From positions 1-40,546 of IMG/VR virus record IMGVR_UViG_3300045970_000141: a stretch of 40,546 nucleotides of DNA; one strand, given 5' to 3'. Below, piece by piece: positions 3,044 through 39,716 of the stretch (position 1 is its first letter; the number at the start of each line of letters is the position of its first letter). This DNA comes from a virus. Made by a program: the position numbers and the translations under genes. Below the pieces are notes generated by a model that was not told the origin of the DNA, searched no databases, and worked only from the letters and a program-made list of their open reading frames with translations.

Positions 3044-4120
3044 CTAACGTCGCGTGTTCAGCGAATCCCACGCGGCGTTGATGTCGTCCGTCAAGCTACC
3101 CCCCGATGGAGCCGCTACACCAGCTGTCGGGTTACCACGAACACTCGATGCTGCCACTCTGGCCCGCTGCGTGGATCCGTTCTGATTCGCGGCGGCCCTC
3201 CGCTGCTCTACAATCCGAGATACCTCGGGGTGTAACGCAACGGCTTTATTATACGCATCTTGTGCCGACATTTGGAAGCCCCTCTTGGACGCAAGGTCAA
3301 GGATATCGGCCATGTCCATCCGAACGTCCTCGAAGAACTCCTCGCCCTCGATGGCTTGAAGCTGCTGGGTGGCCTGCTGCCTCGTCCTCTCCTCGGCCTG
3401 CTGGAGAATGGCGTCCAGGCGGGGATCCCGGATGGGCCCCTGCGGCGCCTGCTGCTGGGGAGCCTGCTGGGGGGCCTGACCCGAAAGAAGCGCATCGAGG
3501 GTAGCGATGTCGACCCCGTAGGTCTTGATGATCCCGGCGACGATCTGAGCCCGGGTCTGCTGGGGGCCCGTGGCGAGCATGGCCGTCGTCCGCATCAGGT
3601 TATTGATCCCGGTCATGGGATCCACACCCTCGGAACGGAACAGGTGCTCGTAGGGACCGATGGCCTTCTGGAACTGCTGGTGGGTCTGGCGGGCTTCCGC
3701 CGTCTCCTGGAGCGCCATGGCGGTTTCCCGCTCACGCCGGATGACCTCCTGCTGGATGTCCGGGGGCACCTTGTCCCAGCCCTCCCGGGCGAGAGGCTTC
3801 CAGGACGCCGGGGGCTTGGCCTTCACCGGGGCTTCCGGGGTGACCGGAGCCACCTCGGGGGGCTTCTGGGCCTCCGGGGGCTTCGCCCCGTCCGTCTTGA
3901 TGGTGGGGGCCTTCTCACCTAGCGACTTGGCGAACCGGCCCTTCTCGTCCCTAGCGCGGTCGTCGGCCTGCTCCTGCGTCTCGCCGATACGGGCTTCGGC
4001 GCTGACCTCTGCCGAGGCCTCTGTCGGAGCCTCTGTCGGAGCTACTGCCGGAGCCTCGGGCTCGGTGGAGTCCAGTGCGGCCGCGATATCTTCCCTGAGA
4101 TTCGAGTCTTCGATGACCAT
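3044..4120 (-). CDS. Scaffolding protein (358 aa).
   Basis: It lies between portal and capsid genes. It has a low-complexity acidic/Pro/Ala N-terminus and a Q-rich helical C-terminal half, which is typical scaffold composition. Confidence 0.65.
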   Translation of the reverse strand: MVIEDSNLREDIAAALDSTEPEAPAVAPTEAPTEASAEVSAEARIGETQEQADDRARDEKGRFAKSLGEKAPTIKTDGAKPPEAQKPPEVAPVTPEAPVKAKPPASWKPLAREGWDKVPPDIQQEVIRRERETAMALQETAEARQTHQQFQKAIGPYEHLFRSEGVDPMTGINNLMRTTAMLATGPQQTRAQIVAGIIKTYGVDIATLDALLSGQAPQQAPQQQAPQGPIRDPRLDAILQQAEERTRQQATQQLQAIEGEEFFEDVRMDMADILDLASKRGFQMSAQDAYNKAVALHPEVSRIVEQRRAAANQNGSTQRARVAASSVRGNPTAGVAAPSGGSLTDDINAAWDSLNTRR

Positions 4121-4694: not shown

Positions 4695-6962
4695 CTACTC
4701 CTTCCTTCCGGCGTTCTTGTTGGCGGCCTTGCTCTGGGAGAGCTTCTGGGCGTGCTGTTCCTTCGCCTGCTTCATCGTCATCTCGTGGTTGGCGATGGCC
4801 CGCTCGTGCTCCATGGACGCGCTAGCGTCGTCGAGCAGCATCTTCTTCGTGTCGGCCCGAATCTCGGCCTCGGCCTGACGGGCGCTGATCTCGCCCTCCA
4901 TCTGGGTTTGCTGGAGGGAGGTCTGGGCCTTCTGCTGCTCCACCTCCATGCCGAACATGAGCTTCTTCTGCTCTAGCTGGAGGCCGAACGCCTTAGCCAT
5001 CATCTCCATCTGGAGTTCCTGCTTCCGCATCTGCGCTTCCATCTGCTTGATCGCCATCTCAAGCTGGTTCTTCTGCTGCTGTGCCTGGATGTCGACCTGC
5101 GCCTTCTGCTGATCCATCTGCATCTGGGCAACCATCTTCTGCTGCTCCATCTGCATCTTCTGCTGCTCGGGGTTCGGCTGCGGGTTCTGCTGGGCCTGCT
5201 GCATGACCTGATTTGCGGTGAGCACCATCTGATCCAGCACCCCCTCGATAGTCGCACCGCCACGGAACCCAGCTATCGTCCATTGGAGCACCTGGAGGAG
5301 ATACGGCATCGACCACGGGGCGGCTTCCGCCATCGGGAGCGTGCTCTGGAGGAACTGGGACATCGCCATCAGGAATTCGCTACGCTCCTCCTTCACGGCG
5401 GCCATATCCGCCATGGACACGGACTCCGGCTTCACCTCGATACGGTACTGGTAGAAATCGCTCTTGATCAGGGCGATGGCCTGCTGGGCGCTCTGCTGAT
5501 CCTGCTGCGCGATGTACTGGATGTTGGAGCGCTTGGCGATCGTCTCGGGGTCTACGTGCTTCGAGATGATCTCGGCCTTTAGCGCCTGGATATCGGAGGC
5601 GAACCGTGCAAAATCGTTCTGGAGACGCTGCACCCGCACCGAGGCAAACTTCGCCTTGAGGGACTGTTCGGTGGCCGTCGCTCCTGCGGTCGACTGTCCC
5701 CGCATGATGTCCGACATCCCCGTGATCTGGTAGAGAAGCTGCATCAGTTCCGAGCGGTAATCCCGAAGCACTTGGAGTGCATTCACGATTGCGTCGAGCG
5801 GAAGCCAATCGACCACTCCGGCGAGGCCGCCCTTTTCCTTGAACGCCTCGAATCCCTCGATGCCGATCAGTTCGTTTGCGATCGTCTCGGAGAGCAGGCG
5901 CTTCACGCCCTCGTTCGTCTTGTCGTAGACGCCGCGCACCGCGATGGCGCGCTCCAGGTTGGTGATCCGGGTGGAAACGGCATCCACCTCGTCGTAGATG
6001 TCTTGGGCCAATACGAAATCGGCCCGAGGCATGAACTTGGTGGTGGTGACGTTCGCGACGAGCGGCCTAGGGCACGGGAAGAAGCCGTCCAGTTCGTAGG
6101 GGTCGTCCTTGATGTCGAGGATCTTGTCGAATCCCTTTACCCACCAGTAGACCTTCCGGTCTTCCTTGTTCCAGATTTCCCAGACATCGGCCCGGGACCA
6201 CGGGTCGTTCTTGAGGCCGTCGTTCTCGTCCTTGTTGATGTGCTTCGTGCCGGTCAGCGGGATCTTGTCCCCGTACTCCGGGAACCGCTTTCGCAGTTCG
6301 TCCTTCGTCATCGGAGCCTTGAAGGCTACCCAGCGAACCTCGTCCCACGTGCGGCAGGGCGACCAGCGGAAATCCCGCCAATGCACGTAGTCGGTGTCTA
6401 CGTCCTCTTCCTTCTTGGACGGATCCGGGGTGTAGGCCGGGGCTCCCTTGCGAACCAGGCCGGTAGCCTGGTCGATTGTATCCGGGATGGCCGGAACATC
6501 GTCGTGCTCCTCCCACTCGACCTCGTAGCGCACCCTAGCCTGCCCTAGACCCGGGATAAGCCGGTCTTCGAGGCAGTTCTCCAGAGCGGTCGCGTAGGTG
6601 TCGCTATCCCGCTCGATGTCCGTGTTCAGCATACGCTGGAGGACTTCGCCGCCGATCCGGGCTACGTCGTCGTTCGGATCCGCGAACTTCCGCTTCACAT
6701 CGACCTTCGGCTCCTTGCCGTACATGAGGGCCTGAAGGGTCTGGACGTTGGAGGAGAAGAGGTTGATGCGGGTGTCGCCCTCGCTGCGCTGGTCGTTCCT
6801 CATATCGAGGAACCGCTTGACGGTCTTGTCGCCCGCGTCGATCCAGGGCTGGCTATTGTCGGCCGCCGCCTTCATCTCCACGGACCATTTCGAGGCAATC
6901 CCCTCCGGGCTGTCGTCGAACTGGCGCTCTGACTCGATCTTCTGGCTGTTTTCGACGGTCAC
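4695..6962 (-). CDS. Portal protein (755 aa) with a long Q/M/E/K-rich C-terminal helical extension.
   Basis: Size, position directly after TerL (ATGA overlap at 6959-6962), and general portal-like sequence character. The last ~190 aa are a low-complexity coiled coil. Confidence 0.85.
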   Translation of the reverse strand: MTVENSQKIESERQFDDSPEGIASKWSVEMKAAADNSQPWIDAGDKTVKRFLDMRNDQRSEGDTRINLFSSNVQTLQALMYGKEPKVDVKRKFADPNDDVARIGGEVLQRMLNTDIERDSDTYATALENCLEDRLIPGLGQARVRYEVEWEEHDDVPAIPDTIDQATGLVRKGAPAYTPDPSKKEEDVDTDYVHWRDFRWSPCRTWDEVRWVAFKAPMTKDELRKRFPEYGDKIPLTGTKHINKDENDGLKNDPWSRADVWEIWNKEDRKVYWWVKGFDKILDIKDDPYELDGFFPCPRPLVANVTTTKFMPRADFVLAQDIYDEVDAVSTRITNLERAIAVRGVYDKTNEGVKRLLSETIANELIGIEGFEAFKEKGGLAGVVDWLPLDAIVNALQVLRDYRSELMQLLYQITGMSDIMRGQSTAGATATEQSLKAKFASVRVQRLQNDFARFASDIQALKAEIISKHVDPETIAKRSNIQYIAQQDQQSAQQAIALIKSDFYQYRIEVKPESVSMADMAAVKEERSEFLMAMSQFLQSTLPMAEAAPWSMPYLLQVLQWTIAGFRGGATIEGVLDQMVLTANQVMQQAQQNPQPNPEQQKMQMEQQKMVAQMQMDQQKAQVDIQAQQQKNQLEMAIKQMEAQMRKQELQMEMMAKAFGLQLEQKKLMFGMEVEQQKAQTSLQQTQMEGEISARQAEAEIRADTKKMLLDDASASMEHERAIANHEMTMKQAKEQHAQKLSQSKAANKNAGRKE

Positions 6963-8359
6963 GGGATCCTCTTGCGCTGCGACAGGGAGATGGCTCGATC
7001 GTCGTGAAGCTGGTCGAGCGTGAAGCTCATGTGGATAGGAACCGCATTGGGCTTGGGGGCTACCAGCGTAGGAGCACCTTTCCCTAGCATCTCCGATACC
7101 TTCACTACGGCAGCAGTATACCGGAAAGCGTCAGCGGCGTGGCTCGACCAATCATGGGCGGGTCGTGCCGAGTAGTCGCGGTCATCCTCGTCCCACTCGT
7201 AGTGATAGTTGCGGATGCACTTGATCCCGTCAGCGGTGCGCGGGTGGAAGCGCACGCCCTTCTGGATCATCCATCGAGCGGCCTGAATTCCCTCCAACAG
7301 TGGGAGATCGGGTCCAACCGATACCACTCCAGGGTACTTTCGCAGGAATTGATTGAGAATCGAAACCCCAGCCGCGAGAGTAGTTTGCCGGGCATCATGT
7401 GGAAGCCAGTGGCGTATGTATCGGTACGGTTTCCCGTCGATGACATCGAAATAATGACTAAGCGGTTTCCCGTGCTCTTCGTAAAAATCGATGAGGTCAA
7501 CGCGCCCTCCCTTCACTTGCCAGAACCAGATCACCGTGGAATCGGTGAAGCCAAGATCCCAGCTAGTGAAAACGTCGTCGTAGCCGTGCTCGAAATCGTC
7601 GAGGGCCCCGGTCTTCCCGGCCTCGTCGACGAGATCGCCCCAGACGGAGCCGACGAGGGCGGCTGTCCAGTCACAAAGGTACTCCTGCTTGATGAATGCT
7701 TCTGGCTTCCCGCTCTGACGCTCCTCGGCTAGCGTCTTCTCGGGGTCATACGCACGGGTATCGAAGAGGGTTTTGATGTCGCAATACCAGAGCTTCGGAT
7801 CCGCCTTGGCGCGGTCGAACAGGTCTTTTGCGTGGTTCGCCCCTCTAGGCGTCGTGATGTAGATTTCCCAACCGTCGTTCTCCCGGAGCATAGGGGAGAT
7901 GAGGTTCGTGCTCTTGGGCGAGCAGATGGCGTATTCGGAGTAGACGACACCTACGGGTCCGGCGCCCACGACCTCCACTCGATCTGACCCCAGGAGGCGC
8001 CAGATGCTTCCACACTTGAGTTCCACGACCATCTGCTGCTCGTCCTTGCGCTTGACGATGGACCCGGGTCGCTTCGGGTCCAGAAAACCCGGAAATACGT
8101 TCTCAAGGGTACGCTTTCCTTCCTTGGTGAAGCCCTCCCAGATGGCCTTCCGGGCTTGGGCGAATGTCGGGTAGATGTGCCAGTAGGCGCCCTTCCGCTC
8201 GTGCATCATCTTGCAGGTCTGGTGGAGGGCGGCGAGATCCTTGCCGGAGCGCCGATGCCACACCATCATGCACTTCTTCCCCCCGTTATCCATGAAGTCC
8301 ATGAACGGGATCTGGTAGTCCCGGGGGGTGAAATCGTTGGGTAGGGAGACGTTGATCAT
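6959..8359 (-). CDS. terL: Terminase large subunit (466 aa from the internal ATG).
   Basis: Walker A-like VWHRRSGKD near the N-terminus, size, and position before the portal. I prefer the ATG at 8359 (MINVSLPNDF...) because it forms an ATGA overlap with the upstream stop at 8356-8358. The track start at 8389 would add 10 aa. Confidence 0.88.
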   Translation of the reverse strand: MINVSLPNDFTPRDYQIPFMDFMDNGGKKCMMVWHRRSGKDLAALHQTCKMMHERKGAYWHIYPTFAQARKAIWEGFTKEGKRTLENVFPGFLDPKRPGSIVKRKDEQQMVVELKCGSIWRLLGSDRVEVVGAGPVGVVYSEYAICSPKSTNLISPMLRENDGWEIYITTPRGANHAKDLFDRAKADPKLWYCDIKTLFDTRAYDPEKTLAEERQSGKPEAFIKQEYLCDWTAALVGSVWGDLVDEAGKTGALDDFEHGYDDVFTSWDLGFTDSTVIWFWQVKGGRVDLIDFYEEHGKPLSHYFDVIDGKPYRYIRHWLPHDARQTTLAAGVSILNQFLRKYPGVVSVGPDLPLLEGIQAARWMIQKGVRFHPRTADGIKCIRNYHYEWDEDDRDYSARPAHDWSSHAADAFRYTAAVVKVSEMLGKGAPTLVAPKPNAVPIHMSFTLDQLHDDRAISLSQRKRIP

Positions 8360-9435
8360 ACCCACGCGCTCCCGTTCCAGTAGACCCAAGCCGTGCCGCT
8401 CCAGACCTTGAACGTCTGGTTGATGGCGCCGCCGCCCCCGCTGGTCGCCCGGGCGTAGGCGTCGGAGAGGGTCAGGGTGTCCAGCTGGGTCCGGCCGGAC
8501 GCGACGGAGGCCACCGCTACCGCATAGGCGTCCGACAGGGCGAGGGTGTCTAGCGAGTCTTTGGTTGCTCGGGCGGCGACCGAGTAGGCGTCCGACAGGG
8601 TGAGCGCATCGGACTGGGATCTGCCCCCTGCCGTTGCCGTGGCGGCGGCGTAGGCGTCGGACAGAGCGAGGGTGTCAGCCTGCGAACCCTGCGCGGCCGC
8701 GCTTGCGGCGTAGGCGTCCGACAGCGCCAGCGCCTCCATCTCGGACCTGCTGACCCCTGCCTGCGCGGCATAGAGGTCCGATAGGCTGAGAGTGTCGCTC
8801 TGGCTCCTAGATGCCGCTAGCGCGGCGGCATACAGGTCGGACAGGGTGATGGCGTTCGATTCCGAGCCGGTAGCCGCGAGCGCGGCCGCGTAGAGATCGG
8901 ACAGGGCCAGCGTTTCCGCTTGAGATCTCGCCGCCGCAACGCTGGCTAGGTAGGCGTCCGACAAGACGAGCGCGTCGGACTCGGCCCCTGCGTATCCCAG
9001 AGCTACTGCGTATAGGTCGGAAAGCGCCAGGCTTTCCGCCAGGCTCGCGCTAGCCCCGGATCCACTAAAGGCGCTAGCGTATGTGTCCGATAGAACTAGG
9101 GTGTCGCTAGAGCTGCCGCTATACGAGATGGCGGCAGAGTAGCCGTCTGCCAGGGTGATAAGCTCAGCGCCAGCCCCAACTAGGCGGACGCTAGCCGAGT
9201 AGCTATCGGAGATAACCAGCGTCTCGGCTTGGGAGCCCTGCGCGGCTGCCCCTGCTGCGTAGGTGTCGGTGAGGGTGATGGTCTGGGCTGCCAGAGCAAC
9301 CCCGACCACCATGATCACCGCATAGGCGTCCGAGAGGGCTAGCGTCTCGGTAACTGCCCCGCTATCCCCCCCACCGCCGCCACCACCGGGGACTCCGGTC
9401 TGGAAGGCGTTGGGCTGGAAAGCGTTCTGCTGCAA
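8356..9435 (-). CDS. Tandem-repeat protein (359 aa). Poly-Gly N-terminus, 15 copies of a ~20-aa unit (..TLxLSDxYAAxxA..), and an aromatic C-terminal tail.
   Basis: A single uninterrupted ORF. I counted 15 repeat units by hand. The apparent start is TTG at 9433-9435, 3 nt after the methyltransferase stop. Its stop overlaps the TerL ATG. Confidence 0.75.
   Translation of the reverse strand: MQQNAFQPNAFQTGVPGGGGGGGDSGAVTETLALSDAYAVIMVVGVALAAQTITLTDTYAAGAAAQGSQAETLVISDSYSASVRLVGAGAELITLADGYSAAISYSGSSSDTLVLSDTYASAFSGSGASASLAESLALSDLYAVALGYAGAESDALVLSDAYLASVAAARSQAETLALSDLYAAALAATGSESNAITLSDLYAAALAASRSQSDTLSLSDLYAAQAGVSRSEMEALALSDAYAASAAAQGSQADTLALSDAYAAATATAGGRSQSDALTLSDAYSVAARATKDSLDTLALSDAYAVAVASVASGRTQLDTLTLSDAYARATSGGGGAINQTFKVWSGTAWVYWNGSAWV
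8425..9351. repeat. About 60-bp periodic degenerate tandem DNA repeat (the coding repeat of the gene above).
   Basis: Recurrent cores such as gcgtaggcgtccgacag.gcgagggtgtc alternate with variable ~30-nt segments, all in one reading frame. Confidence 0.85.
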
Positions 9436-9438
9436 GAG

Positions 9439-10056
9439 CTATTTCTTGATCGCCGTCGCGATCATGTCCTGGGCGGCTTCCTTGTAGGACTGGAGAGCGA
9501 ACTGGACGAAGCCCTGATCGCGGCCGATGCACCAAGGGGCGAGCGAGTACCCGTAGGAGACATCGAAATCACAGCTATACGCGAGCGGGCCGGGAGCGAT
9601 CTCGGAGTCGGTGTGAGGGGCCTGTGCAGGAAGGTTCTTCTCCTTGCTGCCAGCCCTCCACTCCTTGTTCATGTAAAGCCACGCCATCTCGGAGAAGGGG
9701 GCCTGATGGGTGGGGTCGCCGTAGTACCTGTTGGAGTTCCAGTGGGGAAGGACGATCTGGGCCTTCGCCCCCTTCCGCATGACCCGGTGCAGTTCGTTGA
9801 AGAAGAAGACCCGCTCCTTCCAGGTCAGGTGCTCGATCATGTGGGAGCAGTTCACCTCGTCCACGGAGTCGTCGGCCCACGGCCACGTATGGTTGCCGAG
9901 GTCGTGGACGACATCCACGCCGGGGAGCTTCAGGGTATCTACCCCGATGAACCCCTCCTTCTTGTTCCCGCCGCACCCCAAATCCAGCTTCAAGGGGACG
10001 ATCATCGGAACGAGGTTCGCCGGGACATCCTCTGCCTTCACCTTGCGCTTTGCCAT
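9439..10056 (-). CDS. Class I SAM-dependent methyltransferase (205 aa from the internal ATG).
   Basis: Motif I LDLGCGGN, a downstream acidic loop (VDVVHDL), and a VDEVNCSHMIEHL motif typical of Methyltransf_11-like enzymes. The ATG at 10056 has GGGGG as SD and lies 10 nt after the upstream stop. Confidence 0.8.
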   Translation of the reverse strand: MAKRKVKAEDVPANLVPMIVPLKLDLGCGGNKKEGFIGVDTLKLPGVDVVHDLGNHTWPWADDSVDEVNCSHMIEHLTWKERVFFFNELHRVMRKGAKAQIVLPHWNSNRYYGDPTHQAPFSEMAWLYMNKEWRAGSKEKNLPAQAPHTDSEIAPGPLAYSCDFDVSYGYSLAPWCIGRDQGFVQFALQSYKEAAQDMIATAIKK

Positions 10057-10066
10057 GTGACCCCCG

Positions 10067-10798
10067 TCACCAGATACGGCCGTCATCTGCGATATGGCCG
10101 ACAGTTGTGCTGCAATCGACAGCGCAGCGGAAGCCGTTCGGCCGCGCCACCTGTCCCCAGAAGTAGAGATCCTGCGTGCCGACGCCCCTGTCGTCGGGAT
10201 CCTTGCCGAGCGTCTTAAACCAGGGCTTCTCGACCTTCTTCGCCTCCAGTTCCCGGAACATCGACATCCGGTAGAGGGCGAAGCCCATTCCGATACCGTA
10301 TGACTCGATGACCTGCCCGGGGACCGGGATCTGCGGCCGGTAGTTCTGCACTGGATCCCTGATGTCGCCCCAGATTTGGGGAACCCCGCCCTCGCCCTTC
10401 GTCCAGTAGAGCCCGCTGATTGCAGCGTACTCGGGATTTTTCTCCATGGCAGAGAGGAGCTTCAGCACCTCGTTGCCCTGAGAGCAGATGTTGTCGTGCT
10501 CGATGGTCAGGACGTATTCGAAATCCCGCAATCCGGGGTTGGCGAGCGTGATGTCGATGGCGGCTTGAAAGGCTGCGCCCACTTCCGCCCCCTTGATGAA
10601 CATCGGGACCATCGCCTGATTCGGCGGGAAGACCAGATTGCGGTGCGACAGGTACACCTCGGGCATGATCTTGTTGCCGCCCGGAATGATGTAGACGATC
10701 CGCTGCTTCTTCCACGAACCGATCTCCGTGAGCCGCCTGCTGGCGGCCTCCAGGTCTTTGTTGTGGATCCCTTCTCCAATCATCAGGATTTCTGCCAT
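10067..10798 (-). CDS. GT-A fold (family-2-like) glycosyltransferase (243 aa from the internal ATG).
   Basis: Rossmann-like N-terminal strand (RIVYIIPGGN), a DxD-equivalent TIEHDN, and a later GTQDLYFW acidic motif. The ATG at 10798 is preceded by GGGGGGA and lies 11 nt after the upstream stop. Confidence 0.7.
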   Translation of the reverse strand: MAEILMIGEGIHNKDLEAASRRLTEIGSWKKQRIVYIIPGGNKIMPEVYLSHRNLVFPPNQAMVPMFIKGAEVGAAFQAAIDITLANPGLRDFEYVLTIEHDNICSQGNEVLKLLSAMEKNPEYAAISGLYWTKGEGGVPQIWGDIRDPVQNYRPQIPVPGQVIESYGIGMGFALYRMSMFRELEAKKVEKPWFKTLGKDPDDRGVGTQDLYFWGQVARPNGFRCAVDCSTTVGHIADDGRIW

Positions 10799-10809
10799 TG
10801 TCCCCCCGG

Positions 10810-11835
10810 TTAGGTACTTCCAAGTATGCAATACCAGTTGTTGACGACGCTACCGCTGATCCTCGACCCGGCCATGTCGGCATTGGAGGTGATCGCTCCC
10901 GCAACGCCTCTCGATGCAGGCCCCCACGGGTTGAGCGACGAACCGGCCACGGTGGAGCCCGTTCCGAACCAAGCAAAGTTAGCAGCCGCAGCTGGCTGCT
11001 GATGGAGATTCGAGTAGAGCGCGGCGGTCGTCGCCGTTGCGGTCGTTCCTGCTCCCGAAGAAGCATGAGCCTGCGCGATCCAGTACTCTCCTGCCGTGAG
11101 CGTCGTCGCAGGGAACGGGATCTTGATCATCCTCGGTCCATTGAAGACGGCGGCGATGTTGGCCGTCGCGCCGGACGAGAAGTTTGCCGCGAGCGTTCCG
11201 CCAGTGGTATCCGTGGCGAAGGATACGGTCATGCCGATGGAAGTATTTGAGTGTGTGATGAGGACGGTTGCAACGAACGACCCGTGGGTCATGTACGACA
11301 GGCTATCGTAACTATTGCCGTAGTTCTTGCGGCTGAACAGGCTGAAGTAGTGCGTATAGCCGTGGCGAACGGTCTGAGTCGTGGCAGACGAAGTGCCTGT
11401 CGGGAACCCGATGCTAACGGACTTGGGTGCCCACACGTTGTTGAATGCGAGATCTTCCTGGATGCTGAAATACTGGAAGTAGGTCGATGCAGGGTGAGAC
11501 GACCATGCCGTGCCGGTGAGGTACGGGGTCGGCTCGAAGATCGACATCGCACGGCCAGTCTCGTTGATCCAGAGCGTCTGCCCGCCACCGGCAGCAGTGG
11601 ACAGGTTCAGCGTGATGTCATTGGTGCCACCGAAGACGAGGTTGGTCCCAGACCCGTTCGCGGTGCCAGCCGTGTTGCCGGTGATCGTTACGAAGTGGTT
11701 GTGCGCGGAGTTCCAGTCAGAGGGGCGTATGAGATCCGTCGCCGCGATGGTGTTCGTCCCACCCCCGCTGTTCGCGACTGTGACCGTCCCGGTGAAGTCC
11801 GCGACGGTATTCGACTTCACATGACTGACGGCCAC
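10810..11835 (-). CDS. Fibre-like or receptor-binding-like beta-rich protein (341 aa, Thr/Ser/Gly/Asn/Ala-rich).
   Basis: GTG start at 11835 with a strong AGGAGG SD 5 nt upstream. The N-terminal segment (..TDLIRPSDWNSAHN..) and composition resemble phage fibre proteins. The functional call is tentative. Confidence 0.45.
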   Translation of the reverse strand: MAVSHVKSNTVADFTGTVTVANSGGGTNTIAATDLIRPSDWNSAHNHFVTITGNTAGTANGSGTNLVFGGTNDITLNLSTAAGGGQTLWINETGRAMSIFEPTPYLTGTAWSSHPASTYFQYFSIQEDLAFNNVWAPKSVSIGFPTGTSSATTQTVRHGYTHYFSLFSRKNYGNSYDSLSYMTHGSFVATVLITHSNTSIGMTVSFATDTTGGTLAANFSSGATANIAAVFNGPRMIKIPFPATTLTAGEYWIAQAHASSGAGTTATATTAALYSNLHQQPAAAANFAWFGTGSTVAGSSLNPWGPASRGVAGAITSNADMAGSRISGSVVNNWYCILGST

Positions 11836-11850
11836 GGGGGCCTCCTGATC

Positions 11851-12447
11851 TTAGGCCATCGACAGAGAGGCGGTCACCGACAGGGTGGACGGGTTGGCGG
11901 CCTGGAGGGAGGCGAACGTCCCGTAGGCGTAGAGGCGAACGTCGGCGGAAGCCGCGCCCGTCCCGCAGGCGGCCGAGGTGTAGAAGAGCACACCCGCGCC
12001 GCTGATCGTCTGGACGGCGGTGATCCCGTAGGAGGCCGTTGCCGAGAAGAGCTGGGTGCCGGTATCGCCCGCCGCCGTGGCGGCGGTGGCGAAGGTGATG
12101 GCCGGGATCGACGCCCCGTAGCCCGTCACCTGGGAGCCGTTGATGTTCGACCAGACGGCGCTGGCGTTGGTGGTGGCCGAGGCCGAGTGGAGGAAGAGGA
12201 AGGCGTTGGAGTTCGAGGCCCAGCTTGCGAAGAGCCGGTTGCCGACCAGCGCCCGCCCCTGGTGGACGACGAGGTTGTGCGGCATATGGCCCGAGGCGAT
12301 CATCTCGGGCTTGCCGTCCGGGCCGGGGGCCCAGAGTTGCGCGTCCATCTTGAAGTAGGGCATCTCCAGCGCGTCGCCGGAATTGCTTCCGCCGTGGACG
12401 ATCTGGGCCTCGTACTTGTCGGTCAGGTTCAGCTTCTCGCTAGCCAT
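11851..12447 (-). CDS. Hypothetical beta-rich virion-associated protein (198 aa from the internal ATG).
   Basis: The ATG at 12447 (MASEKLNL...) has a GGAGAG SD and follows the upstream stop at 12464. The N-terminal 38 aa of the track ORF overlap the upstream gene and are rejected. Confidence 0.6.
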   Translation of the reverse strand: MASEKLNLTDKYEAQIVHGGSNSGDALEMPYFKMDAQLWAPGPDGKPEMIASGHMPHNLVVHQGRALVGNRLFASWASNSNAFLFLHSASATTNASAVWSNINGSQVTGYGASIPAITFATAATAAGDTGTQLFSATASYGITAVQTISGAGVLFYTSAACGTGAASADVRLYAYGTFASLQAANPSTLSVTASLSMA

Positions 12448-12463
12448 GGGGCTCTCCGTCTTT

Positions 12464-12895
12464 CTAGGGGATATTGATCCAACCCCAAGTACCCGCGTTT
12501 CCGGCGAGCCATTGGGCATAGGTGATACCGCTTGCTGGGGGAGTGGACTGAACAGCGACACCGAGCCGAGCCCACATGGCGGGCCGACTGAGCAGGGAGG
12601 CCAGCGAGGTGTTCAGGGCCGCTATCTCCTGGTCCGTGACGGCATCTTGAGCCTGTAGGGCCAGAACATCAGCAGTGAGGATGGCGTCTTCGGCGGCGGT
12701 TCCGAAGAAGGAGGGGGGATGACCCCCGAGGGTAGCTGCATCCCCCCCTCCCGGGTTGACGCCTGTGGCCGTGAGTTTCGCGATGGGGCCGGTGACGGCA
12801 GCGGTGATGCCGGATACGAGATCCAGCGTCTCAACGTAACCGACAGTGGCCCCGTTCTGGGTGATCTTGAGGCGTATCGGAACCTGGATGCTCAC
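12464..12895 (-). CDS. Small fibre-like protein (143 aa).
   Basis: GTG start in a GTGA overlap with the upstream stop. It contains DAATLGGHPPSFF, a motif type (D.TL.G.H.S.F) common at the start of phage tail-fibre shafts, followed by a coiled-coil-like segment. Confidence 0.55.
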   Translation of the reverse strand: MSIQVPIRLKITQNGATVGYVETLDLVSGITAAVTGPIAKLTATGVNPGGGDAATLGGHPPSFFGTAAEDAILTADVLALQAQDAVTDQEIAALNTSLASLLSRPAMWARLGVAVQSTPPASGITYAQWLAGNAGTWGWINIP

Positions 12896-13513: not shown

Positions 13514-13963
13514 AACCTCCCTAAGACAAGACTATCACCAAAAGCTAGCTAGTACGGAACGCTACTTGTCTAGCCGAAGGTTTAAGGCTCTTAACACGCA
13601 GCCGGAGCGTTAGCGGAGGCTGGCCGAGGCTCTTGGCCGAGGCGAGGTGAGCGAAGCGAACTGTCTTTGTCACGCCGATCTACATACGTTCTAGATCCGC
13701 ACGCGCGAGCATGGACCTTCCGAAGATCGCTTGTCAATCCCCAATAAGGATGGTTTTAACAACCTGCCTAGACGCCTAGAGCTTTCTAGCTTCGGGCGTA
13801 CCCCCAAAGGGGTAAACCCGTTTCAAGCGATTTTTGGGTAGTGGGAAGGGGCCCACCTTTTCAATCTCCGATCGATCCGGGATGACCCCGGGGGGCGGGT
13901 CCGTCCACTCGCGCCCTGCCGCCGCGTAGCCCTGGCCATACACTACGTGACCATACATACAGC

Positions 13964-14021
13964 CTAGCCTAGCGTGCCTAGTCTAGCGCCTAGCCTAGCT
14001 AGCCTAGCCTAGCTAGCCTAG
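13964..14021. repeat. Dense CTAG / (G)CCTAG(C) microsatellite-like array.
   Basis: I counted 11 CTAG tetramers in 58 bp (starts 13964, 13969, 13978, 13983, 13990, 13995, 13999, 14004, 14009, 14013, 14018). Three more lie at 14043, 14084 and 14100. Confidence 0.9.
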
Positions 14022-14148
14022 CGCCTACCCCGCGCCCCGGACCTAGCGTGCCGATCGTAGCTGGGGAAGAGCGTCTATCCGAGCTAGCGTCCAGTCTCCC
14101 TAGCCTACCATATCCCTGTAACCGGGGAAGTTACACCCTAACCGTGCC

Positions 14149-14813: not shown

Positions 14814-16019
14814 ATGGCTTTCACCGCGAAGGAATCGGGAACCTGTACGCGCTGCAACGGAGAGATCAACGTTGGGGATCAGATCGTCATCTATAACCGG
14901 CCAAAGCCCCGTAGCCTGTTTCACGCCACGTGCCCCGACGAGGGTCGGCACACTCCCCCCGGTGTGGAGGGTCCGGAGGGCGAGCAGGAGGGTCAGGGAG
15001 GCAAGGGAAGGGGCGAGCAGGGCGAGCAGGAGGGCGAGGGTCAGGGCGAGGGTCAGGGCGAGCAGGAGGGCGAGGGCGAGCAGGAGGGAAGCGACAAGCC
15101 CCCCACGATCGACGCCATGATCGACGAGAAGGTTAAGGCTCGCGTCAAGGTCGAGATCGCAAAGGTAAAGGTTCCAGGTGGCGCCCCTACCCGGATCGAG
15201 ATCGTTCCCGTACAGGGTCCGCCGATCGACGTTACAGAAGATCACCCAGACGTTCCTCGGGTGATCAGGCTCTTCATGGCTGGCCTGTTTCCCTACCTCT
15301 GGGGGGATGCGGGGACGGGAAAGACCACTGCGCTTATGCGCGCTGCTACCATTCTCGGCGAAATGCAGGGCCGCACGATCGGCATGGAAATCGATACCCT
15401 CGATCGCTCTACCCCCCGATCAGCGATCCTCGGATACCGCACCCCTAACGGGGATCCGGTCCAGACCCCCTTTACCAGTAGCTACACCAACGGCGGGCTT
15501 CTCATTCACGACGAAATGGATAACGCCCCTGCATACGTTCAATCGATCCTTAACACTGCGCTGGCTAACGGGCATTCGCCTAGCGCGTGGGGCACGATCA
15601 AGCGGAACGCGGATTTCTTCTACTGTGCCGCTGGCAACACGCCATTCCGTCCTACGCCTAGGTTCCCCGATCGCTTGCCCGGATCGTTCGCCTACATGGA
15701 TCGGCTCTATTTCCTCCACTGGGAGCTAGACCAGAACATCGAACGGCGGGCTTGTGGGCGCCCTCCGGTCAAGCGTCAGGCTCGCAAGGTCGAAACCTGC
15801 TCGGCCGCAAGTTGGGGCGCGTGGGTCGAAGAGGTTAGGGAGTGGACCCGGGTCAACACCCCCACCATCCAGGTGACGCCTAGGGCGACGTTCGCGGGCT
15901 TGAAGGCACTGTCTGCAGGGGAGACGCCCCTCGAAGTAGCTCATGGCCTGATCTTCCGGGGGGCTGATAGCGCCCTGACGGGCAAGATCCTCGCAGCTAA
16001 CCCCTTGCCGAAGAGCTAG
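14814..16019 (+). CDS. AAA+ ATPase (MoxR/CobS/AAA_5-like) with an N-terminal CxxC..HxxC zinc finger and a (G/E/Q)n linker (401 aa).
   Basis: Walker A WGDAGTGKTT and Walker B LLIHDEMDNA. N-terminal C11-x2-C14-x22-H37-x2-C40. A low-complexity GEQ tract spans aa 51-92 (nt 14964-15089). Confidence 0.8.
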   Translation: MAFTAKESGTCTRCNGEINVGDQIVIYNRPKPRSLFHATCPDEGRHTPPGVEGPEGEQEGQGGKGRGEQGEQEGEGQGEGQGEQEGEGEQEGSDKPPTIDAMIDEKVKARVKVEIAKVKVPGGAPTRIEIVPVQGPPIDVTEDHPDVPRVIRLFMAGLFPYLWGDAGTGKTTALMRAATILGEMQGRTIGMEIDTLDRSTPRSAILGYRTPNGDPVQTPFTSSYTNGGLLIHDEMDNAPAYVQSILNTALANGHSPSAWGTIKRNADFFYCAAGNTPFRPTPRFPDRLPGSFAYMDRLYFLHWELDQNIERRACGRPPVKRQARKVETCSAASWGAWVEEVREWTRVNTPTIQVTPRATFAGLKALSAGETPLEVAHGLIFRGADSALTGKILAANPLPKS

Positions 16020-31040: not shown

Positions 31041-31943
31041 CTAGCCCGTGGTCTGGAACGTCAGGTTGTCGAGGGGGATCGTGGTTCCTGACGCTAGAAC
31101 CCGTTCGCAGCTAAAGGCCATATTCCCGCCGATTATGGTCACGCGCATATACTCCGAGAACAGCACCAGCGACGGATCTTCCCCGGCTCCCAGATAGACG
31201 AAATTCCCGTAGGGAGGCATCCCAGTGATCGTGAACAGCGTCTCGCTTCCCACCGTTGGGCCCGTGGTGACCACCTTGCCGTAGAAGACGATCGTGCTGC
31301 CCGCGACCTTCCGCCATCGGAGCCCAAGCGTGGTGGCATTGACTCCGTTGGTAGGCTGGGCCCACGCAGAAAGGGCCCCGGCGTTATCCACATACGCCTT
31401 CGTGGCCGCGTCCTGCGCCAACGTGGGGTCGAGCAGGTTCACGATCTTCTGGTTGCCAGCGCTTGCTCCGGCCGAAAGCACCGCCTGCGCCGTGAAGGTC
31501 GCTACCCCGGTGACCCCGAGGGTTCCCGTGATGCCCGCATCCCCGCCGACTCCAAGGTCGCCCGTGACGCCCACGTTGCCGCCGACCGAGGCGTCCGTCG
31601 TGACCGTGATGTTGCCCGGGAATACCCAGTTCACCACCGCGAGAACCTTTGCCCAGGTAGCCGCGATGACGCCTAGAGCAGAGAAGCCTCCAGTGCCAGC
31701 GCCAGAGCGGTAGAGGCCGGTACCTCGCTCCAGGTCGAAGGTGATACCGGGTGCCGCCGAAGAACCGTCCGCGTGGGGGAACGGAGAGGCCATCCCGCCC
31801 TTGCCGGTACGGGAAAGGCTGTCCTCCAGCATCGCCGCGATATCGGTATTCGTGGCGTTCTGGACCGACGCCATGGCGGCTGTCCCACCGACAACCGGGT
31901 TACCGGTGGGAAGGGTAACCGTTCCGTCCAACGCTCTAGGCAT
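31041..31943 (-). CDS. Tail fibre protein (300 aa).
   Basis: The N-terminal LPTGNPVVGGT...DIAAMLEDSLSRTGKGGMASPF...SAAPGITFDLERGTGLYR and the later NQKIVNLLDPTLAQDAATKAYVD are classic conserved tail-fibre motifs. Confidence 0.85.
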   Translation of the reverse strand: MPRALDGTVTLPTGNPVVGGTAAMASVQNATNTDIAAMLEDSLSRTGKGGMASPFPHADGSSAAPGITFDLERGTGLYRSGAGTGGFSALGVIAATWAKVLAVVNWVFPGNITVTTDASVGGNVGVTGDLGVGGDAGITGTLGVTGVATFTAQAVLSAGASAGNQKIVNLLDPTLAQDAATKAYVDNAGALSAWAQPTNGVNATTLGLRWRKVAGSTIVFYGKVVTTGPTVGSETLFTITGMPPYGNFVYLGAGEDPSLVLFSEYMRVTIIGGNMAFSCERVLASGTTIPLDNLTFQTTG

Positions 31944-37010: not shown

Positions 37011-38719
37011 TAGAGGATGCCTCCCTGATCCGCGACGACATCGAAGCCGATCAGCGTTGTGTTCGATTCAGCAGTGACGCGGACGACCATCGCCGCGCTA
37101 GTCCCAAGCCCCGTGGTGCCGACGACCTTGTTGGCGGTTGCGTGGTCGTCGCCCCAGAGCATCGTGTCCCAGAGGCCCGTATCCCAAGCATTCGCAGGAA
37201 CCGTAAGCGGGGATGCGGTAGTACCGATATCCGATAGGTCGAAGTCATAGCGGGCTTCCGCCGAGTACCCCGGGGTGTTCCCGTCCGTGTAGAAGTAGGG
37301 CCGAATCATGTGGACCCGCTTCTTCCGTGCCGACCCCATCATCGTGTATGCGGTCATCACGGATGCGTTGATTGGAGTCGCCCCGGTCCCGTCCAAAAGC
37401 TGCCCGTCAACGAACCCCTTGTTCGCGCAAATGCGACCATCGGCCGTACCGAAGTAGAGGTCGCCCTGCCACGGCTCCATGCACATGACCGGGATGCCAC
37501 TCTGCTGCGCCCACCCCTTCGACGAGAGGGACATCACGAGTAGCTGCTGTTCGTGGTCCGGCGTAGCGGGGACGCTCACCACCATCAGGTTGTCGGAGGG
37601 GTGCATCTTGATCGACCACCCCGGGAGATGGCCGCGATCCGTCATCAGGATATTGAAGAGGTTGGCGATCTTGCCCGTCGCCATGATATTCGGGTCACGG
37701 ATCAGGCCGCCCGCCACCAGCTTCGAGAGGGGCACACAGCCCAGCCTAGACAGGATGAAGAGGTCGCCACCGAAGTCGGAAGCGATGCGCCTGCCCGGGG
37801 GTACCTGCCCTAGCCACCAGACACCATGCAGGCCAAAGGTTTCAGGGAAAGTAGGATCAGTACCCCGATAGATAACCACATCGCCACCTCTGCTGATACC
37901 CACAAGCAGATCGTCAATACCCGTCCCACCATCCACGGTCCAGGACCAGAGTCCGACAAGGCTTCCTCCGTAGCGGAACCGGCTGCCGAACGGCATCTGG
38001 CTGACCGTCCCGGCGAACTGGTTAACCGGCAGATAGACGGCGGTTGACGAGTCCTCCGGGGTGAACCACAGGCGGTTCTTCCACGAAACGACATGGCGGA
38101 ACGAATCCGGGTTTGCTCCGTTGATCTGGCCGACCCCCGTGCCCTGCGTCACCTTTGACCATACGTTGTTCCCCTCGTCGTAGAGGAGATAGCCGTTGGC
38201 GCCGTCGCAGTAGGCGATGTAGTGGTTCCCGTTCTCGTTGGCGAAGGCCGTGTAGATTCCTTCGCCTGCCCCGGGCGGATTGACGTACTGTCCGAGGTAG
38301 TTCAGGTACGTCCCCACCGGGAACGTGTAGACCCTGTTCGACACCGACAGGACGCCGGTATGGGTGCAATCGTAGATGCCATCGGGAGTGCAGGCGAAGA
38401 GGCGGTCCCCACGGGAGGCGTGCCCCGTGAACGCGATGACCGTCCGCACACCACCTGGGTTGAACCCCTGCCATCCGGTCGGGGAACGCCCGCCATAGCT
38501 AGGAGCCGGAGTTCCTACCTGGGTACACCACTCCCGCCACCCGGAGCGGACCCGAAGGCCGTACTGGAAGGGGATGAGGTTCCAGAGCGACAGGCAATCC
38601 GACTCCGGCATCTTGCTGGCCGGGTCGGAAGCGTTGATGCCGCCCACGGGCGCGGCCATATGAGCCACGTTGTTCGTGGCCCTCTGGGGCACTGGCCGGG
38701 TAGGGTATCTAGGAGCCAA
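37010..38719 (-). CDS. Tail tubular protein B / nozzle-like protein (569 aa).
   Basis: Size, beta-rich repetitive character and position after the adaptor-like gene, matching T7 gp12-type synteny. The start is uncertain: TTG at 38719 or ATG at 38659. Confidence 0.55.
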   Translation of the reverse strand: MAPRYPTRPVPQRATNNVAHMAAPVGGINASDPASKMPESDCLSLWNLIPFQYGLRVRSGWREWCTQVGTPAPSYGGRSPTGWQGFNPGGVRTVIAFTGHASRGDRLFACTPDGIYDCTHTGVLSVSNRVYTFPVGTYLNYLGQYVNPPGAGEGIYTAFANENGNHYIAYCDGANGYLLYDEGNNVWSKVTQGTGVGQINGANPDSFRHVVSWKNRLWFTPEDSSTAVYLPVNQFAGTVSQMPFGSRFRYGGSLVGLWSWTVDGGTGIDDLLVGISRGGDVVIYRGTDPTFPETFGLHGVWWLGQVPPGRRIASDFGGDLFILSRLGCVPLSKLVAGGLIRDPNIMATGKIANLFNILMTDRGHLPGWSIKMHPSDNLMVVSVPATPDHEQQLLVMSLSSKGWAQQSGIPVMCMEPWQGDLYFGTADGRICANKGFVDGQLLDGTGATPINASVMTAYTMMGSARKKRVHMIRPYFYTDGNTPGYSAEARYDFDLSDIGTTASPLTVPANAWDTGLWDTMLWGDDHATANKVVGTTGLGTSAAMVVRVTAESNTTLIGFDVVADQGGIL

Positions 38720-39716
38720 ATCCGGTCACCGGGATGCTCTGCTGTCCGACCAACGGGTCGAACCCGAGTATACCGTATCTATTCAAACTCAGCTTCTTTG
38801 ACGGGGCGTCCTGATTGAGCGCTGAGTCGAGGATGGCGTTGAAATCCTGCTGGACGGATGTCGTGTCGAACCCCTTGGCCTTCAGGAATTCTAGCTTGAG
38901 GCCAGCCACCACCAGAAGCGGGTCGAACCACACGTAGTCGGTCGAGGCCGTAACCGTGTCAGCCGAGGTCGTATTGGGGGACGCCAGCGTGGAGGCCCAC
39001 CAACCCGAGCAATACTCGAACGCGATGACGTAGCCTGCCGGGGTATTCGTATCCGGGTAGATGTTGATGCTCCGCTCCATCGGCCGGAACAGGACCGTGA
39101 ACACCACCCCCACCAGACGGGCCTTGAGGTACTGCCACTCCTGGGCCGACAGGGGGCCTCCCAGCGGGAGCCGGTTCGTCCGGTTCCACCCCGTCTGGTC
39201 GATCATGTTGTGGAAGTCGCTAGGGAGGCAGTATTTCGACTGACCAGCTACCGTGGTAAAAACGTGCTCCTTGCGGAGATAGCTCCACGGTGGGCCCATT
39301 CGCGGGTGAATGAGCCTCTTGCCTAGGCTTTTCAGGAGCCAGCACATCTGCTTCACGCTGGCGTCCGTGCTGGCGTAGGGGTCCGTCACGTTGCTCAAAC
39401 CGACCTCGACAAGCGCCTGATTGACGAGGTTCCCGGCCGTATCCCATACGGGGATCGGAACCCCTGTCGCCCGGAACGGTGCGCTCCAGGGCGACACGTT
39501 GCCCGACCCGTCCTCTGCGTTCACCCGATACCAAGTGGCCCCAGTCCCGGCAACGTGGTCGTAGTAGAACACGCCAAGCGTGCCGTCGTAATTCGGCCCC
39601 GGGATCGCGTGTGTAATGGTAGCGACAGCGGCGTAGGTAACGCCGTCTGCCGACGACTCCAGGTTGTACTTCGCGATCCCTACGGTTGTGGCCGGATTCC
39701 AAGTGACCTTGATCAT
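38709..39716 (-). CDS. Tail adaptor / tubular protein A-like protein with an N-terminal FN3-like domain (335 aa).
   Basis: ATGA overlap with the upstream gene. The N-terminal ~95 aa (VTWNPATTVGIAKYNLESSADGVTYAAV...WYRVNAEDGSGNVSPWSAPF) show the FN3 pattern. The remainder is assigned by position. Confidence 0.5.
   Translation of the reverse strand: MIKVTWNPATTVGIAKYNLESSADGVTYAAVATITHAIPGPNYDGTLGVFYYDHVAGTGATWYRVNAEDGSGNVSPWSAPFRATGVPIPVWDTAGNLVNQALVEVGLSNVTDPYASTDASVKQMCWLLKSLGKRLIHPRMGPPWSYLRKEHVFTTVAGQSKYCLPSDFHNMIDQTGWNRTNRLPLGGPLSAQEWQYLKARLVGVVFTVLFRPMERSINIYPDTNTPAGYVIAFEYCSGWWASTLASPNTTSADTVTASTDYVWFDPLLVVAGLKLEFLKAKGFDTTSVQQDFNAILDSALNQDAPSKKLSLNRYGILGFDPLVGQQSIPVTGFGS

Follow-up and report, generated by a model that had tools for sequence, protein, structure and literature searches.

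A new sub-family of tandem-repeat proteins in an unusually placed, mobile host-recognition and putative glycosylation cassette of an Mx8/Mx9-related phage

The triple beta-spiral shafts of attachment fibers (adenovirus fiber, reovirus sigma1, and PRD1 P5) consist of strand-turn-strand repeats of 15 to 20 amino acids (aa). In the choline-binding (CW_binding_1) and clostridial-toxin CROP repeats, beta-hairpins of ~20 residues build a beta-solenoid that binds cell-surface carbohydrate. Beta-helix tailspikes of the P22 gp9 type have three strands in each coil of ~22 to 25 aa. Here, we analyzed positions 1 to 40,546 of IMG/VR virus record IMGVR_UViG_3300045970_000141 (this whole stretch of 40,546 nucleotides [nt] is called the window), in which a protein with 15 tandem units is encoded immediately 5' of the gene for the large terminase, TerL. 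The protein is like a hairpin-repeat fiber shaft but is a member of none of the known systems tested. What is new is a repeat sub-family encoded, at an unusual site, within a mobile cassette of host-recognition and putative glycosylation genes. We consider the protein to be a virion-surface fiber or adhesin shaft, probably tail-associated, with a probability of roughly 0.55.

The open reading frame (ORF) of the repeat protein has the following parts, for which confidence in the AlphaFold models is given as the predicted local distance difference test (pLDDT) score.

8356..9435, minus strand: repeat-protein ORF of 359 aa, with a TTG start and a TGA stop
9397..9435, minus strand: N-terminal motif MQQNAFQPNAFQT with a duplicated AFQxN, kept in orthologs as (A/S)FQxx(A/S)F
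9367..9387, minus strand: poly-Gly linker GGGGGGG, residues 17 to 23 (pLDDT of <50 for residues 1 to 28 in both models)
8419..9348, minus strand: array of 15 units of 20 to 23 aa, residues 30 to 339
8359..8415, minus strand: C-terminal Trp motif TFKVWSGTAWV-YWNGSAWV, in which the unit F-x-V-W-x-G-x-x-W-V is duplicated

The consensus of the units is (D/E)-(T/A)-L-x-L-S-D-x-Y-A-x-A-x-x-x-x-(G/R)-S-x-x. The motif [LIV]x[LI][STA]DxY occurs 15 times in the ORF at spacings of 20 (10 times), 21, 22, and 23 (twice) residues, and three or more such motifs were reached in none of 20,000 composition-preserving shuffles of the protein. Asp at position 7, Tyr at position 9, and Leu or Ile at position 3 are found in 15/15 units, Leu at position 5 is found in 14/15, and position 6 is Ser in 13/15 and Ser or Thr in 14/15. 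Positions 13 to 20 are variable and rich in Ala, Gly, and Ser, and they end in Ser-x-x ahead of the next acidic residue. The protein as a whole is acidic, with Asp and Glu at regular spacing, and its C-terminal tail is FKVWSGTAWVYWNGSAWV. The units are old; compared pairwise, they have a mean identity of 0.42 at the protein level and 0.50 at the DNA level. Because they share only ~50% nucleotide identity, Tandem Repeats Finder detected no DNA-level array in the unit region, and the repeat is visible at the protein level only; the program reported one short 15-nt array (9400-9432), over the duplicated AFQxN codons. A preliminary description of this DNA had presented the ORF as a three-part, 359-aa protein with a poly-Gly N terminus, 15 tandem units of ~20 aa, and a Trp/Tyr-rich tail, and the coordinates, the translation, and the motif count bear this out.

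On the minus strand, the sequence around the start is ...ATC AAG AAA TAG CTC TTG CAG CAG AAC..., in which CTC separates the TAG that ends the methyltransferase gene from TTG. A TTG start at this 3-nt distance, as first proposed, is therefore read directly in the sequence, and it is backed by the N termini of orthologs (MQGNAFQ with an ATG start in the 42-kb contig L092 and MQQDAFQ in P0166). JGI called the identical 359-aa ORF on the source contig Ga0485188_0000390 (49,937 nt), a second, independent Logan-assembled contig carries the ORF with identical nucleotides, and the G+C content at third codon positions in frame is 0.78. With orthologs, a second assembly, and this codon bias, the ORF is a real, conserved phage gene.

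No Pfam family (E≤0.01) and no PHROG matched the repeat protein, and NCBIfam gave composition-driven matches only (13 to 20 bits against cutoffs of 150 to 2500), in agreement with the initial impression that the repeat belongs to no named family. A word-indexed search recovered 23 relatives (E down to 4e-18), and an exhaustive HMMER scan recovered 694 cluster representatives with E≤1e-3, among which 143 had E≤1e-10 and 4 had E≤1e-30. The longest member found by the HMMER scan has 3,699 aa, as many as 11 stretches were matched in one member, and a periodic x-L-x-L-[S/T]-D unit with a period of ~18 to 22 aa runs through the family. The phrog_12240 profile was matched by 13 of 22 homologs (best, 1.6e-15), and the window protein had no match to it at E≤1e-3. 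This unnamed [S/T]-D family of ~20-aa repeats (with phrog_12240 for the wider family; BFVD entries A0A6J5PBZ6 and A0A6J7X0B7) has significant similarity to the window protein and shares its period and its xLxL[ST]D core, and its members are encoded in phage structural modules. In a scan of 50 long members, Laminin_G_3 (a ConA-like lectin domain) was present in eight, and single members carried Phage_tail_L, the podophage GP4 fiber-tail adaptor Gp77, GH16, or SPRY.

The ends of the protein set it apart within this family. The window protein and its orthologs have (A/S)FQxx(A/S)F just before the repeats and F-x-V-W-x-G-x-x-W-V at the C terminus (L007, L008, L014, L009, L092, P0043, P0047, P0133, P0166, P0175, and P0176), whereas most family members lack AFQxNAFQ and FxVWxGxxWV, and many end in YLRRYLNDV instead. 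W345, G347, W350, and V351 are invariant in nine orthologs (alignment A6), the Trp motif is also present in P0043 and P0176, and the Trp unit is duplicated in the window, L009, L092, and P0133. The AFQ motif is internal in L008, L014, P0047, P0133, and P0043, where it is preceded by a domain of 60 to 370 aa for which no profile match was found. As the preliminary description had proposed comparing, the number of units does differ among orthologs: 15 in the window, ~20 in both L007 and L092, and no fewer than 17 in L009, which is truncated. Judged by sequence similarity, the repeat protein represents a new sub-family of a large, unnamed, and uncharacterized family of uncultured phages. Our tblastn search of 50,697 phage records returned no match to the repeat ORF or to three family members, a result to which the BLAST low-complexity filter may contribute, and literature searches that covered myxophages, virion glycosylation, and hairpin-repeat fibers turned up no work on this repeat family.

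Two AlphaFold monomer models were obtained, the first with a heterogeneous multiple-sequence alignment (pLDDT, 52) and the second with sub-family orthologs added (pLDDT, 66.7; predicted template modeling [TM] score, 0.63; 164 residues at 70 to 90). Both were all-beta, with no helices. In the better model, x-T-L-x-L-S makes a 6-residue strand in each unit, Asp-x provides the turn of 2 residues, and a 9-residue strand that starts from the invariant Tyr leads into a loop of 3 to 4 residues; the C-terminal Trp motif is modeled as a hairpin (E341-345/E350-353). Foldseek comparisons of both models with the PDB gave nonsignificant generic solenoids and beta-helices (best E, 0.15; TM, 0.15 to 0.33), the P22 tailspike among them (TM, ~0.2 to 0.3), and PDB sequence searches with the repeat ORF and with its C terminus found nothing significant. 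The best matches in BFVD were uncharacterized proteins of uncultured Caudovirales (TM, 0.57; E, 9.5e-4; probability, 1.0). The elongated beta-solenoid or fiber shaft guessed at the outset fits both models as well as the genomic company of the protein (tailspikes, fiber-like proteins, and lectin fusions); the searches brought up no profile of a known fiber-repeat or small-terminase family that would contradict it and no solved relative.

According to these predictions, each ~20-aa unit would fold as a beta-hairpin with a tight turn at the invariant [S/T]-D-x, and Y-A-x-A-x-x-x would form the second strand. A 2-residue turn would pair Leu5 with Ala10 and Leu3 with Ala12 to create one Leu/Ala face, which would have to be buried through supercoiling of the ribbon or through oligomerization, and Thr2, x4, Ser6, Tyr9, and the variable residues would be exposed on the opposite face. 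Fifteen hairpins, i.e., 30 strands at 4.8 Å, would give a rod of at most ~14 nm. The conserved ends (AFQxNAFQ plus the Gly hinge, and the C-terminal F-x-V-W-x-G-x-x-W-V hairpin) would dock the rod or set its register, and the repeat array would be the fast-evolving, length-variable part. In the models, the invariant [S/T]-D would most simply be a turn-forming (Asx/ST) element.

Such a protein shares with the CROP repeats a ~20-residue period, a hairpin plus a loop, a conserved aromatic residue, variable tandem arrays, and an adhesin-type role. However, it had no Pfam match to CW_binding_1 (E≤0.01), no such structure was among the Foldseek PDB matches listed, the GW/YY pattern of the CW_binding_1 consensus is not present in it, and its repeat Tyr is not conserved in orthologs (Q in L008, L014, and P0133). 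With the triple beta-spirals it has in common short repeats, alternating hydrophobic positions, and a variable repeat number, but no PDB sequence or Foldseek similarity to them was found when it was compared as a monomer model, and the turn is Gly/Pro in the spirals and [S/T]-D in the repeat protein. The beta-helix tailspikes are its top, although nonsignificant, Foldseek PDB neighbors (TM≤0.33; E≥0.15) and hold the equivalent cassette position in L024 and L094; the repeat protein differs from them in having two strands per 20-aa unit and no catalytic domain, and it had no Beta_helix or pectate-lyase match in Pfam. Its C terminus resembles a foldon-type trimerization hairpin in pattern only, and no T4 fibritin came up when the last 42 aa were searched against the PDB. 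The Ser-Asp MSCRAMM adhesins (ClfA/Sdr) were considered and rejected, with scores of 13 to 20 bits against cutoffs of 1150 to 2500 and one S-D per 20 aa instead of a dipeptide run.

The phage that carries the gene belongs to an Mx8/Mx9-related podophage lineage. Its kinship with Myxococcus phages Mx8 and Mx9 shows in TerL and, downstream of TerL on the same strand, in the portal (phrog_12082, 1e-176; 51% identical to the Mx8/Mx9 portals), which is accompanied by a major head protein (phrog_9953, 1e-104). The late strand resumes at the far end of the window with a SU10-adaptor-like tail protein (the adaptor, 38709..39716), an Mx8-p52-like protein, and a tail-fiber gene. A genome (prophage) scan with TerL gave a weak Brucella match only and no host assignment. 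Starting from a divergent intergenic region of ~750 nt, the late operon is ordered g133, g79, g143, g198, g341, a GT-A-fold glycosyltransferase (GT-A), a methyltransferase, and the repeat ORF. The genes needed in the following comparison are listed here.

6959..8359, minus strand: large terminase TerL (phrog_2, 4.2e-24; 58% identity to Mx9 TerL)
9439..10056, minus strand: class-I S-adenosylmethionine (SAM)-dependent methyltransferase (Pfam Methyltransf_11, 9.8e-6, above the cutoff; phrog_6636, 2e-14)
10067..10798, minus strand: GT-A-fold glycosyltransferase with EHD at the DxD position and a TQDLYF motif (alignment A8)
10810..11835, minus strand: fiber-like protein g341, with ~90 conserved N-terminal aa and a variable C terminus
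11851..12447, minus strand: constant cassette protein g198, with homologs in L008, L014, L021, L092, L094, and L095
12464..12895, minus strand: cassette protein g143, with a GGGDAATLGGHPPSFF motif, a Trp-rich C terminus, and homologs in L014, L030, L092, L094, and L095
13112..13510, minus strand: g133, the first late-operon gene (132 to 133 aa), of a conserved family (alignment A4) that always heads the cassette
31041..31943, minus strand: canonical tail-fiber gene with a QKIVNLLDPTLAQDAATKAYVD motif and weak matches to several tail-fiber PHROGs

Fiber genes are present at two separate loci in this phage, the tail-fiber gene at 31041..31943 lying at the far end of the tail module.

What lies between g133 and TerL is a shuffled, mobile, 4.7-kb cassette of host-recognition type made up of putative fiber, spike, and sugar-modifying genes. 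Its constant members are g143, g198, g341, the glycosyltransferase, and the methyltransferase, and they are joined by one variable member, which can be the repeat protein, a tailspike, or some other large protein. Next after a g341-like gene comes the repeat gene in L008 and L014 and a tail-spike gene in L024. Behind the g133-family first gene, L094 has a Pect-lyase protein, and L095 has a PB4_spike protein and a NosD-like protein. In L024, a 40-kb contig with a TerL 52% identical to that of the window, the cassette (8414..12733) lies between TerL and the portal and not upstream of TerL. Besides a g341-like protein, a glycosyltransferase, and a methyltransferase, it encodes a tail spike of 647 aa that matched phrog_2234 (1e-15) and scored above the Pfam cutoff for Pect-lyase_RHGA_epim and Beta_helix.

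Rates of change within the operon are uneven. Between the window and L092, TerL (91%), the portal, and the glycosyltransferase are 90 to 91% identical, whereas identity falls to 53% over aligned pairs for the repeat protein, whose L092 copy is 104 aa longer, and to 43% for g341; in this comparison, the repeat protein ranks among the two fastest-evolving operon proteins. In g341, residues 1 to 90 are 61 to 78% identical in L014, L092, and L094, and the remainder diverges. Among the 15 members of alignment A8, Glycos_transf_2 was matched by 7 and Anp1 by 4; D113, T219, D221, F224, and H246 are invariant, including the Asp in the DxD position, and the alignment has a T-x-D-L-x-F motif. The window glycosyltransferase protein alone had no Pfam match. 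PDB sequence searches with the glycosyltransferase, the methyltransferase, g341, and g198 found nothing significant, and the tblastn search of the 50,697 phage records gave no match to three cassette neighbors.

The position of the repeat ORF had led the preliminary description to place it in the small-terminase (TerS) slot. Relatives were gathered via TerL (5 viral contigs and 80 metagenome contigs), and the gene 5' of TerL was read in each; a scan of the viral contigs with the repeat protein's own peptides gave 48 pattern matches, none of which was confirmed. Six lineages have an ortholog that shares both end motifs immediately 5' of TerL, with TerL identities of 91% (L092), 86% (L006/L012), 83% (L007), 80% (L008/L014), 78% (L009/L016), and 62% (L019). 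Elsewhere, the gene 5' of TerL encodes an unrelated 136-aa protein (L013 and L015; TerL, 82 to 83% identical), a 603-aa Gly/Thr-rich, fiber-like protein (L026 and L017; 67 to 70%), or a methyltransferase (L030; 60%). In L021 (63%), a 285-aa ETDTAxASE-repeat protein is located further upstream, with other ORFs between. The L021 TerL (6428..8689) is itself unusual, with 753 aa versus about 466; an intein-like insert that starts with CFTGETKV and ends with IVHN before Ser is located between ...HDWSSHG and SDAFRY.

The repeat protein is not a small terminase, and it is next to TerL because the cassette was inserted there in this lineage. The slot assignment fails, since close relatives swap in unrelated genes, the L024 cassette lies on the other side of TerL, and no TerS profile in Pfam, PHROGs, or NCBIfam matched the protein. 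With small terminases such as Mx8 p42-like proteins, it has in common only the position 5' of TerL and the start-codon overlap; it differs in size, predicted all-beta structure, acidic repeats, hypervariability, and replacement in relatives. A TerS is small and mostly helical, with an N-terminal helix-turn-helix (HTH), and is a conserved gene 5' of TerL, whereas the repeat protein has 359 aa, consists of strands only in both AlphaFold models, and is replaced in L013, L015, L017, L026, and L030. Two small genes precede TerL in Mx8 and Mx9, and one of them, p42, has a GAGRPKGS N terminus; Mx8-p42-like small proteins precede TerL in Mx8, Mx9, L023, and L024 (110 aa in L024).

We regard it as very improbable that the repeat protein replaces TerS functionally, as a novel beta-repeat protein that recruits DNA to TerL. 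Its place immediately 5' of TerL with an ATGA overlap, its acidic character with regularly spaced Asp and Glu, and the lack of a TerS profile match anywhere in the window are what such a role would have in its favor. Yet other genes occupy the slot (L013, L015, L026, L017, and L030), a gap of 80 nt separates the two genes in L092, and L024 has its cassette downstream of TerL and an Mx8-p42-like protein before TerL. The hypervariability of the protein (53% versus 91% for TerL in the comparison with L092), the all-beta prediction with no HTH, and the occurrence of family members in tail or head modules far from terminases likewise speak against it. The sole positional candidate for TerS would be g133. 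It has a GRGQAKGSGR N terminus and a LGLTQDDFDTLQEII segment with a weak HTH-like PDB match (E, 0.29), and in relatives it is always followed by fiber or spike cassettes. No TerS profile matched g133, and its profile found nothing significant among PDB sequences. Homology of g133 to the Mx8 p42 family, suspected from N- and C-terminal patterns, was rejected (BLASTP E, about 1; hhalign probability, 0.2%).

At the 3' end of the repeat ORF (...TGG AAC GGG AGC GCG TGG GTA TGA on the minus strand), the TGA stop (8356-8358) overlaps the TerL ATG (8357-8359) as ATGA, and TerL has its own Shine-Dalgarno sequence, GGGAG, 9 nt upstream of its start. It is the codons for Asn, Gly, and Ser in WNGSAWV, a conserved C-terminal motif of the repeat protein, that supply this GGGAG (window 8366..8380, minus strand). 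In L092, the repeat gene and TerL are separated by an 80-nt spacer with no overlap and the WNGSAWV motif is still kept, so the motif is not conserved solely for the ribosome-binding site. The sharing of ATGA with TerL is operon packing of a generic kind, because the unrelated 136-aa protein of L013 overlaps TerL likewise, L092 has the spacer, and TerL has its own GGGAG. Of the translational coupling to TerL claimed initially, the overlap itself stands, but TerL has a ribosome-binding site of its own and the overlap is lost in L092. At the 5' end, coupling of translation to the methyltransferase gene is likely, because the spacing is 3 nt (also in L092) and the repeat ORF is without an obvious Shine-Dalgarno sequence.

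The reading of the repeat ORF as a fiber or adhesin shaft draws on its conserved ends, its hypervariable and length-variable middle, and its replacement by tailspikes in relatives. It is supported by the lectin-domain fusions and by the placement of family members in tail modules: in the SU10-adaptor podophages L003, L004, L096, and L097, the family gene is in the tail module after the adaptors, next to a gene for a Beta_helix protein or a GT-A, and then come a lysozyme and a 1,200- to 1,470-aa protein. Several points weigh against this reading. The fiber assignment rests on genomic context, and the fiber identity of g143, g198, and g341 comes from context and sequence pattern only. No isolated phage among the 50,697 records has a tblastn-detectable homolog of the repeat protein or of its cassette neighbors, the monomer model has only moderate confidence (pLDDT of 52 in the first model), and no solved fiber structure matches it (best Foldseek PDB E, 0.15; TM≤0.33). 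The phage already has a canonical tail-fiber gene (31041..31943). The members in L005 and L099 lie beside capsid genes, which favors a head-fiber role at least there.

Those two siphophages bring in a capsid fiber or decoration, an unlikely role for the window protein, in which a rod would extend off the capsid surface with the C-terminal Trp hairpin bound to the capsid, following a Hoc-like logic, and some orthologs would carry an N-terminal lectin-like domain at the rod tip. In L005, the family member is between the major capsid gene and head-completion genes, and in L099, it comes after a head-module protein of 1,015 aa, with an HK97-gp10-like gene and a tube gene next in order. Where extra domains exist, in the wider family as well as in L008, L014, P0047, and P0043, they always stand on the N-terminal side of the repeats, which suggests that the C terminus is anchored, and the window gene adjoins the head-packaging genes for TerL and the portal. 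However, the partners and replacements of the repeat protein in the cassette are of the tail type (a tailspike, PB4_spike, and g341 with its variable C terminus), as is the module that holds the gene in the SU10-adaptor podophages. In an unrelated siphophage-like contig, L098, a 474-aa family member with an N-terminal extra domain (4736..6160) was observed two genes before a 468-aa ORF (a putative TerL by size and position) and an SPP1_portal-like gene (faint Pfam match), with a 94-aa gene between.

The company of the sugar-modifying genes raises another role, outside the virion, as a substrate, carrier, or assembly factor for the glycosyltransferase and methyltransferase or as an actor at the host surface, which we consider rather unlikely. 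The start of the repeat ORF 3 nt after the methyltransferase stop, also seen in L092, with no obvious Shine-Dalgarno sequence, is consistent with it, as is the homologous GT-A located 0 to 1 genes upstream of a family member in two unrelated lineages. Nevertheless, the glycosyltransferase and methyltransferase persist without the repeat protein in L024, L030, and L095, family members in L005, L098, and L099 have no glycosyltransferase nearby, and no signal peptide or membrane segment was found in the sequence of the repeat ORF. Pentapeptide-repeat and DNA-mimic readings were rejected, with no profile match and with family members in tail or head modules. A fiber or adhesin shaft is the best-supported reading.

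The GT-A and the SAM-dependent methyltransferase (window 9439..10798, minus strand) are constant members of a structural-gene cassette. A homologous GT-A (tblastn E, about 1e-9) was also seen in the SU10-adaptor podophages at 3430..4347 of L003, 8952..10001 of L004, and 8481..9506 of L097. It carries a C-terminal extension and is encoded 0 to 1 genes upstream of the repeat-family gene; the extension may be methyltransferase-like, and of the 15 sequences in alignment A8, 2 matched Methyltransf_11, without attribution to individual sequences. The GT-A and methyltransferase pair may serve in virion glycosylation. A bolder version, in which the [S/T]-D turns of a new hairpin fold are the acceptor sites for the cassette GT-A and the methyltransferase modifies the sugar, strikes us as doubtful, with the odds well against it. 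It is compatible with the presence of a GT-A beside family members in two unrelated lineages (in the window, with separate glycosyltransferase and methyltransferase genes), with the apparent coupling of the repeat ORF to the methyltransferase gene, and with the units themselves, in which S is replaceable by T and D is never replaced. Against it are the glycosyltransferase and methyltransferase cassettes that have no repeat protein (L024, L030, and L095) and the family members that have no nearby glycosyltransferase (L005, L098, and L099). If it were true, the phage would display a rod bearing a glycan every ~1 nm.

Other features were observed at the upstream border of the late operon. The ~750-nt divergent intergenic region, which separates the late operon from plus-strand genes, contains a tandem array of an AGCCT-type pentanucleotide with ~12 copies (window 13961..14022). 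An AAA_5-like ORF of 401 aa (14814..16019, plus strand, opposite to the late operon) has an internal GGCGAG-type tandem repeat (14975..15088). A DUF7192 gene borders it on one side, a faint SymE_toxin-like gene lies at a distance of two genes on its other side, and all of them are on this same strand.

In this Mx8/Mx9-related lineage, the rule that the gene before TerL is the small terminase fails, because a 4.7-kb cassette of fiber, spike, and glycosylation genes was inserted before TerL, and a tempting misannotation is thereby removed. A large, unstudied repeat family now has a defined anatomy that comprises the unit, its turn, a predicted buried face, and the conserved ends. This family would lend itself well to structure determination and to the engineering of host range, since the number and sequence of its units vary freely between near-identical phages. 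The GT-A and methyltransferase pair hints at possible virion glycosylation outside the actinophages, which would be the more interesting result if true.

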